64,000 nucleotides of DNA, taken from the NCBI GenBank assembly GCA_041658075.1, contig JBBAAW010000001.1, forward strand, positions 24,778-88,777, in the 5' to 3' direction. The DNA is from Patescibacteria group bacterium (GTDB taxonomy: Bacteria; Patescibacteriota; WWE3; UBA101185; UBA10185). Of the stretch, positions 7,266 through 61,222 are shown piece by piece (positions within the stretch are counted from its first letter, which is position 1; every line of letters begins with the position of its first letter). The notes below the pieces were generated by a model. That model saw only the letters and a list, made by a program, of their open reading frames with translations, made no database searches and had not been told where the DNA came from. Position numbers and translations under genes: made by a program.

Positions 7266-8179
7266 TTTTGTAGTACCTTTCTGTAAATTGATTCTCCGTC
7301 CAGTCCAAGGTATTGATACAGCTCCTGCTTGTGACCGTAAATGTCAAGGTACTTATCGTCTATACCAATACGAGTAAGCATGGGCTTTGTACCGGCTGGT
7401 AATTCGGCAACCAATTCGGCTATCACAGACCCCAGCCCGCCAATTACGCTATGTTCTTCAACGGTGAATAGATATTTTGCCTTACTGATGATGTTTATAA
7501 TCTCCTTATTCAGAGGCTTTATAGTGTTTATACCCACTACTGTGGGATCTATTCCTTTCTTTGTTAATCTCTCTTCGGCCAATAAGCTTTCTTTTACTGT
7601 CTCTCCAAAGGAGATAATTACCACTTGACTGTTTCCCCTGCGAGCGATTCTATAATCTGCGAATTTGTTATTGTTTGTTTGGTTTTCGGTTTGTTCTGGC
7701 AAGTTCAGCGTCAGCCTAATATAAGTTGGTCCGTCTATTCGAGCGGCTTCTCTAAGTGTCTTTTCGGTTCCCTCTGCATTTTCCGGGGTAAATATTCGCA
7801 TTCCGGGAATTGTTCTCATGATGGCAATATCCTCAATTGAATGGTGGGTGGCACCCAGGGAACTGTAGGAGACTCCGCTTCCTATTCCTACAATTTTTAC
7901 ATTTGCGCTATGGCAGCCAACCCCCACGCGTATTTGGTCAAAGACTCTGGATGTAATAAACGGCGTTATAGTATATGCAAATGGTTTCCACCCATCAAGA
8001 GCCATTCCTGCCGCCGCGCTGATCATTGCAGCCTCGGAAATTCCCACATTAAAAAATCTGTCCGGGTATTTATCCTTAATCTTTCTAAGAAGAAAGGCAC
8101 CGATATCACCCAGGAACAATACCACTTTGGGATCTTCATCAAACAACTTCTCTATTGTTTTAACAAAGGTTTTTCTCAT
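7244..8179 (-). CDS. Transketolase, C-terminal (pyrimidine-binding + C-terminal) subunit of a split transketolase
   Basis: FNVGISEAAMISAAAGMALDGWKPFAYTITPF signature. The ORF track start at 8305 is a TTG extension; the internal ATG at 8179 gives a 20-nt overlap with the upstream subunit gene. Confidence 0.8.
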   Translation of the reverse strand: MRKTFVKTIEKLFDEDPKVVLFLGDIGAFLLRKIKDKYPDRFFNVGISEAAMISAAAGMALDGWKPFAYTITPFITSRVFDQIRVGVGCHSANVKIVGIGSGVSYSSLGATHHSIEDIAIMRTIPGMRIFTPENAEGTEKTLREAARIDGPTYIRLTLNLPEQTENQTNNNKFADYRIARRGNSQVVIISFGETVKESLLAEERLTKKGIDPTVVGINTIKPLNKEIINIISKAKYLFTVEEHSVIGGLGSVIAELVAELPAGTKPMLTRIGIDDKYLDIYGHKQELYQYLGLDGESIYRKVLQKCKKRQK

Positions 8180-13288: not shown

Positions 13289-14032
13289 ATGGACGCGTAT
13301 CTGCGTGCACTTGAGCAACAGTTGGAGCCGCTGTACCACATTCCCCATGTCGTTGGGGGGCACGAGATCAGTCATGTGAGGATGATGTTGGCGCGAGCTA
13401 AAGGGGTGCTTGAGGCGATCAGCCGATACTACCCCGGCCTCGACCCGGCAGACGATGGAACTTTCACAGAGCTTCTTGCCGCTATTTGGTGGCACAACGT
13501 CGACCGGGTTCGGGAGTGGAAAGTAGATGTACAGAAAGCGGGGGGTGACGAGCCTTATGTGCTGATGCAGCTCGCTGACAGTCCTTTCGAAAACGACGCG
13601 CGTGCGCGCATCGCGTACGCGGTGGCAAACCACTCTCAGAGGGAGTGTCAAATCGGTGAACATCCCTGGTTGCTGGTTGCCTTGATGGACCTGGACAAGA
13701 TGGTCAGGCTATTCCCGCTCAATGTCATCGAAGGGGCACAACACCAGCTCGAGGATAACCCGATATACGATCCGGAACCGGAACACCTCTTCGACTACAA
13801 GAAGGCACGCCGAAGCTTATGGCGCGCATTCATGTGGAACTTGGAGTGGGTGCCCATGCTTTCTTGTGACGAGGTGCGTGCGTTGATTGAGAAAGCACAC
13901 TTCCGTGCGTTCATCGACTTCCTGCGGGCTCTGGGGGCTGACATCGCGGAGCGTGAGGGAGTGCCGAACGGAGTCGAAGGGCAGATTGAACTAGCTCTGG
14001 GTGAATATTACCAGGAGTTTGCCTGCTCGTGA
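13289..14032 (+). CDS. Hypothetical protein encoded in a GC-rich (~58%) island
   Basis: 247-aa ORF with strong promoter and SD. Compositionally foreign. No family recognised (His-rich N-terminus HVVGGHEISH). Confidence 0.5.
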   Translation: MDAYLRALEQQLEPLYHIPHVVGGHEISHVRMMLARAKGVLEAISRYYPGLDPADDGTFTELLAAIWWHNVDRVREWKVDVQKAGGDEPYVLMQLADSPFENDARARIAYAVANHSQRECQIGEHPWLLVALMDLDKMVRLFPLNVIEGAQHQLEDNPIYDPEPEHLFDYKKARRSLWRAFMWNLEWVPMLSCDEVRALIEKAHFRAFIDFLRALGADIAEREGVPNGVEGQIELALGEYYQEFACS

Positions 14033-53527: not shown

Positions 53528-53529
53528 TT

Positions 53530-53765
53530 TTTTCACATTGAAATGAACTGGGGGCTGAGATTGTCAAACGTCTGTGTATGACGTATCTCAGTCCCCGCCC
53601 GCCTGCGAGAGCGTCTAGCTGAAACTAGTCGCCCCACCCTCCCTTGCACAGCGTGCCCCCGCAATGAACACCTCTGTTGCACCCATCGCAACCGCAATTG
53701 CAGGAGCCGTGCACTCCACTTAGGTGGGTGAAAGTGTGAACGACCGCTGTTGCGGTCGTTTTTCC
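53530..53765 (+). ncRNA. Candidate structured ncRNA or long 3'UTR (GC-rich, several hairpins, ends at the intrinsic terminator)
   Basis: 11-bp hairpin at 53551-53596. Long-range CCCACC/GGTGGG complementarity. No ORF on either strand. Confidence 0.25.
53739..53765 (+). terminator. Rho-independent terminator (9-bp stem AACGACCGC/GCGGTCGTT, loop TGTT, T-run)
   Basis: Perfect hairpin followed by TTTTT, read directly from the sequence. Confidence 0.55.
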
Positions 53766-54274
53766 GGAACGCACTCGACTTCGACTACGACGTCTCATTA
53801 CAGCACCTCCTGATAAGAGATTGTGCGAATTATATCATAAGAACAATTGGTACGATTAAAGAGTTGGTCAAATTTGAGGAGGAACTGGGGAGTGCGGGCT
53901 ATCAAATAAATGATCTTTTGACAGTAATCGCAGCTCCCCGTTGCCGACCTTTTATCAGTCACACCGCACACCCGTTGGTTGCGATTCCGCAGTGCGCTCC
54001 TATGTCACACCGGGTACACCCGCAGGAGCAGCCTCCCTTCAATGTGTGCAAAAGGCGATGGAGATGTTCCATCACGTGGGAAAACGTTAAGATATGCACA
54101 GCACTCCTCCTGTTTAGAGATTACATGGATTATATCACAAAGATAGCTGGTAGAATTCACAGGAAGTGTACACTATAAACGTACGCTGTCAAAATGGCGG
54201 AGGGTGTGGGACGTACTTGGAACTTTCTTTTCGGATTATAGTAAATACTGCACTGTTTTGCTAAAATAATTGAC

Positions 54275-54775
54275 ATGGTAGACCAAGAACAGTGTTGTAA
54301 GAACCTAATAAACAACTTGAATACGAATAACGCAGATTATAAGCTGTTTGAACATAGAGTGGCTTTAACATACGAAGATTTACAGGCAGTACAAAGAGAG
54401 GCGGGTTTTATAGGTGCTGAAGGTAAATGTATGGTTTTGAAATCTGAATTAGGTTTCATAGTTTATGTTACTTTGCAGGGTAAAAGAGTTGACTTGGAAA
54501 GAATAAAAAACACTCTTGGAGTTAAAAAAATTCGCTTAGCACTTCCTGAAGAATTAAAAGAATATTTTGGGGCAGAACCCGGGTGTGCATATCCTTTTGG
54601 ATTCTCTGAACAAGTAGATATTTATGTTGACCCTAACATCTACAAACAAGAGTGGTTTCTTTTCAGCCCTGTATACCCATCTAAAACAATTCAGGTAAAA
54701 GGTACTGATTTAGAAAAAGTTTTCTCATCTTTAAACAACAAAGTAACTATAGTCACAAATTTCAATCAAGCATAA
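54275..54775 (+). CDS. YbaK/ProX-like aminoacyl-tRNA trans-editing (deacylase) domain protein, paralog 1
   Basis: KCMVLKS (conserved Lys) and GCAYPFG (GxxP) align with the paralog at 60734-61222. Confidence 0.5.
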   Translation: MVDQEQCCKNLINNLNTNNADYKLFEHRVALTYEDLQAVQREAGFIGAEGKCMVLKSELGFIVYVTLQGKRVDLERIKNTLGVKKIRLALPEELKEYFGAEPGCAYPFGFSEQVDIYVDPNIYKQEWFLFSPVYPSKTIQVKGTDLEKVFSSLNNKVTIVTNFNQA

Positions 54776-54830
54776 AATTATCTTCACTTTGGAACTGATG
54801 CGCTTAATCTGGGTGTCTTGTTTTGATACA

Positions 54831-54920
54831 TGGCGGAGGGTGTGGGATTCGAACCCACGCGCAGCTTTGACACCGCGACGGTTTAGCAAACCGTTGCCGT
54901 AACCACTTGGCTAACCCTCC
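54831..54920 (-). tRNA. tRNA-Ser (anticodon GCT), type II with long variable arm, CCA encoded
   Basis: Cloverleaf folded by hand: acceptor GGAGGGT/ACCCTCC, anticodon loop TTGCTAA, variable arm CGCGGTGTCAAAGCTGCGCG, T-loop GGGTTCGAATCCC, discriminator G. Confidence 0.85.
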
Positions 54921-55037
54921 TCGTTTTGGTGGGGCTATTATTCCGAAGCTATTATACTATGAAATAACAGAGCATAGGTGGTCGCTTGCTCACCCATGGT
55001 ACGTGACGAACGTTGCGGCGGGAGATATACTCGTTTA

Positions 55038-60733: not shown

Positions 60734-61222
60734 ATGGAATGTCATCTGGTTGTCCAGAAAATACGAGATTTATTGGAAAGCCGACAGATTAAATACGACT
60801 GTTTTGAACACGAGTCGGTACGTACCAGCGAGGAGGCGTCTAAGATTAGGTCGGGATATACTTTAAAACAGGGAGCCAAGGCTCTAGTGGTTAAGCTCTA
60901 TCTACGTGGTGGAGTAGAGAAGTTTGTGATGTTGGTGGTGCCGGGAGATGCAAAATTCGATAGCAAAAAAGTTAAAAAAATGTTTGACGCTAAAGATCTG
61001 CGGTTTGCCACGGAAAAAGAGGTTGGAGATATTACAGGCGGTGTGTTGGTGGGCGGGGTTCCGCCCTTTGGAAGTTTATTTGGTCTGCAAACTTATATAG
61101 ATCACGAAGTTGAGAAAAATGATCGGATAATTTTTAACGCGGGGGATAGAAGGGTTAGCGTTGCTCTTGCCATCAAAGATTACATATCCACTGAAAACCC
61201 TGTACCGGAGTCACTTGTCTAA
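60734..61222 (+). CDS. YbaK/ProX-like aminoacyl-tRNA deacylase, paralog 2
   Basis: GAKALVVK (catalytic Lys region), GGVPPFG (GxxP). 162 aa. Confidence 0.65.
   Translation: MECHLVVQKIRDLLESRQIKYDCFEHESVRTSEEASKIRSGYTLKQGAKALVVKLYLRGGVEKFVMLVVPGDAKFDSKKVKKMFDAKDLRFATEKEVGDITGGVLVGGVPPFGSLFGLQTYIDHEVEKNDRIIFNAGDRRVSVALAIKDYISTENPVPESLV

Follow-up and report, generated by a model that had tools for sequence, protein, structure and literature searches.

A probable single-gene integrative cassette at the 3' end of a tRNA-Ser gene in a WWE3 bacterium, and related cassettes at other tRNA-Ser genes

Classical islands at tRNA and transfer-messenger RNA (tmRNA) genes (Islander, PMC4383910) leave an intact target that is regenerated by the element, and a displaced 3' fragment marks their far end. 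Integron cassettes are mostly single-gene units without a recombinase, each with a conserved site of its own, that form arrays of variable, unrelated cargo at a fixed dock. A locus with features of both is described here from a 64,000-nucleotide stretch (the window) of a Patescibacteria group bacterium of the WWE3 lineage (GenBank assembly GCA_041658075.1, contig JBBAAW010000001.1, positions 24,778 to 88,777), in which a gene for a YbaK/ProX-like protein lies between the 3' end of tRNA-Ser(GCT) and a partial copy of that end.

Other tRNA-associated systems are also close. Tycheposons of Prochlorococcus (bioRxiv 10.1101/2020.12.28.424599) place the flexible genes of streamlined genomes at few tRNA genes and are flanked by partial tRNAs; they lie in tandem, with older elements displaced outward by newer ones and remnant partial tRNAs dispersed through the island. 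Tycheposons encode a recombinase of the tyrosine or large serine type along with replication modules and have kilobases of cargo. The ssrA islands of Dehalococcoides (PMC3146451) reportedly lie in tandem at the end of a small RNA gene; each is many kilobases long, is bounded by a short direct repeat of the 3' end of that gene, and has its own serine recombinase beside ssrA. Cis-mobilizable elements (CIMEs), known from accretion-mobilization (PMC5704250, PMC6323972), are bounded by att sites, have no integration genes of their own, presumably use a recombinase acting in trans, and accrete in tandem, often at tRNA genes. CIMEs are sporadic deletion variants descended from integrative and conjugative elements (ICEs) or integrative and mobilizable elements (IMEs), usually of several kilobases.

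Repeat, docking tRNA, and anatomy of the cassette

Positions 54195-54830 of the window are probably one nonautonomous single-gene integrative cassette with a YbaK/ProX-like cargo, inserted site specifically at the 3' end of tRNA-Ser(GCT). The features of the locus are as follows (window coordinates).

54187-54193, plus strand: TGTCAAA, probably the ancestral trailer of the tRNA, moved to the cassette's outer side (short match to locus L045)
54194-54211, plus strand: distal 18-nt copy of the tRNA-Ser 3' end, core of the cassette left end (exact repeat)
54195-54231, plus strand: conserved left end, consisting of the TGGCGGAGGG core, T, the arm GTGGGACGTACTTGGAAC (54206-54223), and a T-rich tract (profile match)
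54232-54274, plus strand: conserved noncoding leader of the cargo gene, probable promoter region (about 90% identical to locus L008)
54275-54775, plus strand: cargo gene for a free-standing aminoacyl-tRNA trans-editing domain protein of the YbaK/ProX superfamily, 166 amino acids (aa) (PF04073)
54789-54795, plus strand: right-end TTGGAAC, part of CTTTGGAACTG and 42 nt away from the tRNA end; it repeats the left-arm TTGGAAC in direct orientation
54819-54830, plus strand: right-end terminal block TGTTTTGATACA, abutting the tRNA 3' end (GATATTGATACA-like block)
54830-54847, plus strand: proximal 18-nt copy, i.e., the 3' end of the intact tRNA plus 1 nt (exact repeat)
54831-54920, minus strand: tRNA-Ser(GCT), the docking site (ARAGORN; Rfam); the same tRNA adjoins the TPR gene in loci L044, L045, and L047

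The sequence ATGGCGGAGGGTGTGGGA (repeat D8) occurs exactly twice in the window, in direct orientation, with 636 nt from start to start and 618 nt between the copies, and identity stops at 18 nt on either side. At up to three mismatches the only further site in the window is an unrelated one at 13943 (three mismatches), and dinucleotide shuffles of the window give an expectation of 0.02 such matches. The tRNA gene is intact (61.7 bits against the Rfam tRNA model) and is the sole Rfam match at the locus. Seventeen of the 18 repeat bases (54831-54847) lie inside it, and base 54830 lies 1 nt outside; the part within the tRNA comprises the encoded CCA, the discriminator G, the 7-nt 3' strand of the acceptor stem, the 5-nt 3' strand of the T-stem, and the last T-loop base. 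The 2.6 kb around the feature were assembled identically from an independent second sample. A preliminary description of the locus had reported this repeat, its identity with the tRNA-Ser(GCT) end, the small probability of a chance match, and a single gene without an integrase between the copies. Sequence search bore it out in every detail: one sizeable open reading frame (ORF) lies between the copies, and ATGGCGGAGGGTGTGGGA is not spread through the window.

The closest nonidentical homologue of the cargo protein (86% identity) is encoded at loci L007 to L012, where a PIN/Phd toxin-antitoxin pair is followed by the YbaK gene, with a repeat on either side of it, and then by a 259-aa HD-domain gene, a minus-strand tRNA-Ser(TGA), and an HNH endonuclease gene. 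These two repeats, of 47 nt with 89% identity, read TTGGCGGAGGG[G/C]GTGGGACGCACTTGGAAC..., which is the sequence of window positions 54194-54223. The same left end thus precedes both the YbaK gene and the neighboring HD-domain gene in L008, beside a tRNA-Ser(TGA) whose T-arm differs (TGGCGGAGGGTAGAGGACTCGAACC). Window and L008 align from exactly TGGCGG onward, through the leader and the gene, to just past CTTTGGAACTG, 35 nt before the next TGGCGG. Because homology begins at TGGCGG and the same repeats stand beside a tRNA-Ser with a different T-arm, the distal repeat is, as judged from these alignments, the first half of a conserved 35-nt end borne by the cassette and not merely a displaced local tRNA end. 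A profile of 28 cassette left ends matches 54195-54231 with an E value of 1.5e-12 and no other site in the window. Cassette and target have only the first 10 nt, TGGCGGAGGG, in common; the GTGGG T-stem that tRNA-Ser(GCT) happens to possess extends the identity to 18 nt here. The att-type footprint proposed in the preliminary description is therefore upheld as to integration at a tRNA 3' end, while the distal copy is more than a duplicate of the local end.

Window positions 54187-54211 are 96% identical over 26 nt to positions 7844-7869 of the cassette-free locus L045, which adjoin the tRNA (tgtcaaaA/TGGCGG in the window versus tgtcaaaag/TGGCGG; the slash marks the start of the tRNA-like sequence). 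The 7 to 8 nt to the left of the distal copy (TGTCAAAA) are the sequence directly beside the tRNA in L045, as expected if insertion pushed the native tRNA trailer outward; this probably happened, and the match, being short, is supportive only. The leader at 54232-54274 keeps its identity with L008 despite a proportion of synonymous differences (pS) of 0.60 in the gene and probably is the promoter region; a promoter consensus scan of it was uninformative.

A family of cassettes at tRNA-Ser genes

A scan for the 22-nt motif GGGNGTGGGACGNACTTGGAAC gave 25 loci, 11 from GTDB species genomes and 14 from JGI metagenome contigs. By their titles, the GTDB loci belong mostly to candidate division WWE3, with three from Saccharibacteria and one from Nomurabacteria. 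After removal of duplicates there are 28 distinct cassettes; the 24 with both boundaries are 328 to 1,158 bp long (median, 631 bp). The 35-nt consensus of their left ends is TGGCGgAGGGcgTGGGACGtACTTGGAACTTTtTT, written out TGGCGGAGGGnGTGGGACGyACTTGGAACTTTTTT, and information content is at background right after it. Right ends are of several kinds: among 24 cassettes, 10 have a TTGGAAC-like motif 39 to 45 nt ahead of the following core, and 8, from different genomes, have a GATATTGATACA-like block at -12 that adjoins the core directly; three right ends show an inverted GTTCCA(A/G) at -17 instead. Both of the commoner motifs are present in the window cassette. The 7- to 9-mer (C/A)TTTGGAAC, found in the left arm and, direct or inverted, in right ends, is the best candidate for a protein-binding site.

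Fourteen arrays, each with one to four cassettes, end at tRNA-Ser genes with GCT, CGA, GGA, or TGA anticodons in WWE3/Katanobacteria and related metagenome-assembled genomes (MAGs); in every case they lie 3' of the tRNA and are oriented alike relative to it. Their cargo domains are mutually unrelated: tRNA_edit, HD, putative cyclase, NIF3, cytidylyltransferase-like, uracil-DNA glycosylase family, ASCH/DUF3850, radical SAM, thymidylate kinase, and LigT-like 2'-5' RNA ligase, in addition to several small proteins without a family match. The cargo lies on the plus strand in 15 cassettes and on the minus strand in 13, and none of the 28 carries a recombinase.

A six-unit array stands beside tRNA-Gln(TTG) in a Nomurabacteria MAG (L020, 2163-5982, oriented). 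Its units are bounded by (T)AGCTGGGGCT followed by the arm GTGGGACGAAsTTGGAAC, and the core AGCTGGGG that precedes the arm is the 3' end of the adjacent tRNA-Gln. Since the same arm occurs here with a tRNA-Gln core, the arm is the hallmark of the family and the core is a match to the target tRNA; the core has apparently been retargeted in another lineage.

Several other structures were seen on the same tRNA-Ser ends. A third junction type, TGGCGG..G(T)GATATTGGAAAATA, lies distal to cassette arrays in L023 (reverse strand, 1150) and L024 (307), which suggests yet another element family on this core. A 142-nt unit without an ORF lies between TGGCGGAGGG cores at L018 3035-3171, L030 6702-6843, and L024 886-994 (oriented coordinates); two genomes have it beside tRNA-Ser(CGA) and the third beyond a cassette, on the far side, and its minus strand ends like a tRNA-Ser, with no ARAGORN call. 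The HNH endonuclease gene of L008 (2234-2716, minus strand) ends exactly at the 5' end of tRNA-Ser(TGA) and is absent from the related locus L049.

Evidence for mobility

Three cargo families are found at different tRNA-Ser isoacceptor genes in different genomes. The dock of the YbaK cassette is tRNA-Ser(GCT) in the window but tRNA-Ser(TGA) in L008 and L049, with 86 to 87% aa identity; a cytidylyltransferase-like cassette is docked at tRNA-Ser(GGA) in L021 and at tRNA-Ser(CGA) in L024 and L030; and a small-protein cassette is docked at tRNA-Ser(GCT) in L018 and at tRNA-Ser(GGA) in L021.

Syntenic loci were found through homologues of the TPR protein beside the window tRNA, which is 72% identical in L044, 63% in L045/L046, and 62% in L047. 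All of these keep the order epimerase, family 2 glycosyltransferase (GT2), variable region, tRNA-Ser(GCT), TPR gene, 119-aa gene, tRNA-Pro(GGG), GDSL gene, and acyltransferase. The YbaK gene and the cassette junction with its distal repeat are absent from all of them, where the left-end profile matches tRNA ends only, and the arrangement in the window is not universally conserved.

Arrays also differ between loci with identical flanking genes. L024, L028, and L038 have one cassette. In L030, a cassette of the L024 type (81% nucleotide identity) is outermost and is followed by three other cassettes and the 142-nt unit, which is all that L018 has at this place. Likewise, the YbaK cassette lies directly at the tRNA in L049, and the HD cassette stands in between in L008. 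Junction mismatches increase with rank from the tRNA, from a mean of 0.6 at rank 1 and 1.75 at rank 2 to 3 to 9 at rank 3 or more.

Proposed mechanism of exchange

Every tRNA-Ser isoacceptor shares TGGCGGAGGG, the complement of CCA, G73, and the initial six bases of the acceptor, so any tRNA-Ser gene could serve as a dock. At tRNA-Ser genes with T-stems other than GTGGG (AGGGGG, AGAGAG, TAGAGG, TACAGG), nGTGGGA is still found at the outer junction, and the tRNA remains intact. Because tRNAs with differing T-stems remain intact and the junction retains GTGGGA, exchange would take place within or at the edge of TGGCGGAGGG, and we infer a crossover within it. Crossovers at TTGGAAC or in the T-loop were considered in a paper model and rejected, as they would break the tRNA.

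Site-specific exchange in the acceptor/CCA core by an enzyme acting in trans is the likely mechanism, judging by the sequences of ends and docks. A circular cassette would present one composite site, made up of the right end (TTGGAAC and about 35 nt, often ending in GATATTGATACA), the 10-nt tRNA-Ser mimic TGGCGGAGGG, and the conserved arm (nGTGGGACGyACTTGGAAC, then a T-run). Exchange between this core and the identical core at any tRNA-Ser end would insert the cassette directly 3' of the tRNA, which would be regenerated, and would leave a hybrid junction of core plus arm on the far side, here the distal repeat at 54194. Successive insertions at the tRNA would push older cassettes outward and so build arrays, and the recombinase would be encoded outside the cassette. 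For the window, the model predicts an empty-site junction GCTGTCAAAA/TGGCGGAGGGTGTGGGATTCGAACCC and an excised-circle junction ...CTTGTTTTGATACA/TGGCGGAGGGTGTGGGACGTACTTGGAAC, joined to the YbaK right end.

Search for a recombinase and a parent element

A type 2 junction at a tRNA-Ser end, GGGATTCG/GTCACGYGT (also written TGGCGGAGGGnnnGGGATTCG/GTCACGYGT), opens a larger element in L041 (5013-5100, oriented) that holds SIR2-like, Phage_CRI replication, and large serine recombinase genes. The same junction occurs in L035 (around 14739) and in L047, where 7690-7862 is a 173-nt remnant beside tRNA-Ser(GCT). Among the fetched loci, phmmer probes found large serine recombinases in L041 only, where they are part of this different element type; the cassette arm is unlike the type 2 junction, so that hitchhiking on recombinases of the L041 type is not supported. 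An XerD probe detected no tyrosine recombinase in any fetched locus.

No parental element bearing the arm was found in the genomes, metagenomes, viral contigs, plasmids, and phages searched. A composite attP-like 85-mer had no match in PLSDB plasmids or INPHARED phages. Three candidate leads were discarded: the 18-mer matches only 3' ends of phage-encoded tRNA genes in IMG/VR and does not mark a phage attP; the arm motif in viral contigs has one chance match, inside an ORF on a contig without a tRNA gene (L048); and the HNH gene beside the tRNA in L008, considered as a linked recombinase, is not conserved in L049.

Alternative explanations

Several points weigh against insertion by site-specific recombination. 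Annotation of about 10 kb on either side of the cassette and of two other stretches of the window includes no recombinase, and phmmer searches with serine recombinase and XerD probes had no match in the window. Neither an excised circle nor a strain-level empty site was seen. The empty syntenic relatives show absence and not recent mobility, since the flanking TPR protein is only 62 to 72% identical. Right ends are conserved in only about half of the cassettes, and the last 33 nt before the tRNA are not common to the three YbaK cassettes; this would be expected of neutral DNA at synonymous divergence (dS) of 0.8 to 1.5 and also fits exchange at TTGGAAC, and neutral divergence at a dS of about 1 may explain these unshared ends of orthologous cassettes equally well. 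Furthermore, all loci of the family were ascertained through the motif itself, and the gradient in junction degeneracy, which would fit tRNA-proximal insertion, comes from few arrays selected in the same way.

The geometry of the locus is exactly that of tRNA-integrated islands, and larger elements with serine recombinase and replication protein genes use tRNA-Ser ends in this lineage (the type 2 junction of L041, L035, and L047). A decayed integrase-bearing island or prophage, of which one cargo gene and the distal att copy are left, is nevertheless unlikely, because the distal copy lies within a 35-nt end common to 28 single-gene cassettes, none with an integrase. These cassettes are independent, essentially one gene each, and about half share a right-end motif; random deletion would not yield uniform size or conserved ends. 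None of the 25 motif-selected loci holds a full-length recombinase-bearing element, and the type 2 junction does not resemble the cassette arm. Between a decayed or minimal integrative element and a captured gene cassette, which the preliminary description had left side by side, the cassette form is thus favored and decay is not. It is quite unlikely, too, that cassettes are shuffled between tRNA-Ser loci through their tRNA-like cores by homologous or microhomology recombination and gene conversion, with no dedicated recombinase. At least 10 nt of identity across all tRNA-Ser genes and junctions, units that appear permuted between relatives, and the lack of a recombinase nearby would suit such shuffling. 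However, it leaves unexplained the conservation of arm and T-run across unrelated cargo and two CPR (Candidate Phyla Radiation) classes and of the right-end TTGGAAC at a dS above 1, and 10 nt is very short for RecA-type exchange.

An RNA-level element of the YbaK gene, be it a leader pairing with the tRNA-Ser 3' end (T-box or primer-binding site) or a promoter part, has very little probability. The leader is conserved, and its 17-mer on the sense strand of YbaK is complementary to the tRNA 3' end including CCA; the same junction, however, precedes unrelated genes, and no reverse transcriptase was seen in any locus and no Rfam family besides tRNA. A regulatory leader, primer-binding site, or promoter was rejected because the cargo lies on either strand (opposite in 13 of 28 cassettes) and because distant YbaK homologues, 60 to 68% identical and found elsewhere in the CPR, lack the junction. 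A sigma-54-like look of TGGGACGTACTTGG, noticed by eye, was dismissed for its inconsistent orientation. Chance or an assembly artifact, for which only the shortness of the repeat speaks, is practically negligible, given the expectation from shuffles, the identical assembly of the same 2.6 kb from a second sample, and the recurrence of the junction in NCBI, ENA, JGI, and Logan assemblies.

Cargo protein

The cargo protein matches Pfam PF04073 (tRNA_edit) with an E value of 1.6e-18 and 67.4 bits (gathering cutoff, 25.5) and is a member of the YbaK/ProX superfamily. Against TIGR00011, the equivalog for YbaK, a Cys-tRNA(Pro) deacylase, it scores 26.7 bits, far under the cutoff of 153.25, and is not YbaK sensu stricto. 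Its relatives in the PDB are weak only (Atu3699, TTHA1699, and ProXp-ala). Comparison of the window gene with the two other cassette copies gives ratios of nonsynonymous to synonymous divergence (dN/dS) of 0.065 to 0.071 at a dS of 0.8 to 1.5. By these ratios, the three copies are under strong purifying selection, which indicates that the gene is functional. Homologues with 60 to 68% identity are widespread in the CPR in ordinary contexts away from tRNA genes. That this tRNA-editing gene stands next to a tRNA gene follows from the cassette mechanism and is incidental rather than a functional link.

A second free-standing tRNA_edit paralogue lies 6 kb downstream in the window (60734-61222, plus strand). 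It is 24% identical to the cassette copy and nearer to YbaK proper, still under the cutoff; L045 has only an 84-aa fragment at the matching place. In another CPR genome (L013, 7760-8640), a 67%-identical YbaK homologue lies between direct repeats of about 95 nt of a membrane-protein gene fragment and looks inserted into, or duplicated with, the membrane-protein gene.

Other features of the window

The annotated parts of the window contain a large polysaccharide biosynthesis cluster and housekeeping genes. Positions 1-44000 are mostly this cell envelope polysaccharide/glycosylation cluster, with epimerases, a DegT aminotransferase, methyltransferases, asparagine synthase, several PMT_2 glycosyltransferases, and flippases.

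The stretch between the GT2 gene and the tRNA (window 53528-54193) differs in gene content from its counterparts in L044 (1358-2338), L045 (4537-7852), and L047 (5136-7862). L044 has a 129-aa ORF there; L045 has 150-aa and 333-aa ORFs and an NTP_transferase gene; and L047 has a CopG-like gene and 297-aa and 289-aa ORFs. Cassette junctions are not recognizable in this stretch of the syntenic relatives. As gene content differs and cassette junctions are lacking, the stretch appears to be a broader hotspot of variation.

In the window, this stretch holds two paralogous small Cys/His/Gly-rich ORFs on the minus strand, at 53625-53798 (57 aa) and 53959-54099 (46 aa), which have the motif C-x-C-G-C-x2-C-x5-H-C-G in common (38% identity; E value, 6e-6). 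Each is preceded by a 52-nt repeat block (53806-53857 and 54106-54157) that contains a -10 element resembling TGTGATATAAT and a ribosome-binding site, AGGAGG. The units recur with a period of 300 nt and lie in a patch of 50 to 52% GC in a genome of about 40% GC. The ORFs have no Pfam or NCBIfam match and a weak homologue in L044; they look like SCIFF/ranthipeptide precursors, with no radical SAM gene nearby. Profile search found no further degenerate cassette junctions around these two ORFs or in the syntenic relatives.

Significance

Searches of the literature on WWE3, Katanobacteria, and the CPR for tRNA cassettes, integrases, and att sites, incomplete in coverage, found no prior description, and recombinase-less single-gene cassettes docking at tRNA-Ser 3' ends in the CPR apparently form a coherent, undescribed family. 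A more tentative proposal, for which the odds may be somewhat less than even, is that the CPR (WWE3/Katanobacteria, with a tRNA-Gln version in Nomurabacteria) own a new integron-like system of gene capture, with a tRNA dock, a site of about 35 nt (acceptor/CCA mimic plus the arm GTGGGACGnAsTTGGAAC), and a dedicated recombinase encoded elsewhere. If true, it would supply flexible genes of housekeeping type to otherwise minimal genomes. CPR/Patescibacteria have tiny genomes whose gene gain and loss are little understood, and tRNA-anchored cassettes would offer a concrete and easily searchable mechanism; the cargo seen so far consists of small enzymes for nucleotide, cofactor, repair, and tRNA quality control functions. 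Of mechanistic interest is a target identity of about 10 nt, common to every tRNA-Ser isoacceptor, beside a conserved arm that resembles a protein-binding site. The 35-nt end provides a handle for a recombinase search by phylogenetic profiling and for recombination assays.

Comparison with known systems

The cassettes behave much like integron arrays and like CIMEs accreting at tRNA genes, and their ecology recalls the tycheposon-built tRNA islands and the tandem ssrA islands. Like the classical tRNA islands, the window cassette has an intact tRNA and a distal repeat, and the element is absent from relatives; unlike them, it is integrase free and 1 to 2 orders of magnitude smaller, and its fragment is followed by a conserved arm common to many cassettes. 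Tandem arrangement at a small RNA gene and short bounding repeats are shared with the ssrA islands, which, unlike the cassettes, reportedly encode their own recombinase and are many kilobases long. Tycheposons are similar in their streamlined hosts, in the use of few tRNA genes, and in outward displacement; the cassettes have neither of the tycheposon modules (recombinase and replication) and possess a family-specific arm. Group I introns in Patescibacteria tRNAs (PMC13011429) are anticodon-loop introns and are not relevant here.

With CIMEs, the window cassette shares att-type bounding repeats and the lack of recombination and transfer genes. As for a parent ICE or IME, the serine recombinase element of L041 uses a tRNA-Ser end, and its junction is unlike the arm. 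CIMEs arise sporadically, whereas the cassettes are a uniform family of one-gene units of 0.3 to 1.2 kb with conserved ends of their own and no known parental element.

The resemblance to integron cassettes extends to the order of arrays, in which the newest units are apparently nearest the dock. No intI, attI, or Pc was found beside the docks, where the flanking genes are unrelated housekeeping genes that differ between loci, and inspection of cassette ends revealed no GTTRRRY/RYYYAAC pair. Eleven intercassette junctions, folded as DNA on both strands in search of an attC-like hairpin, gave z scores of -1.97 to +1.54, bar one (about -3 to -3.5) with an inverted TTGGAAC; since the junctions do not fold as hairpins, a single-strand attC mechanism of the integron type is not indicated. 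Integron cassettes are recruited to attI beside intI, whereas the dock here is the 3' end of a tRNA gene without an adjacent integrase or common promoter; in place of GTTRRRY core sites, the cassettes bear a mimic of the tRNA acceptor and CCA end, and their cargo is read in both orientations.

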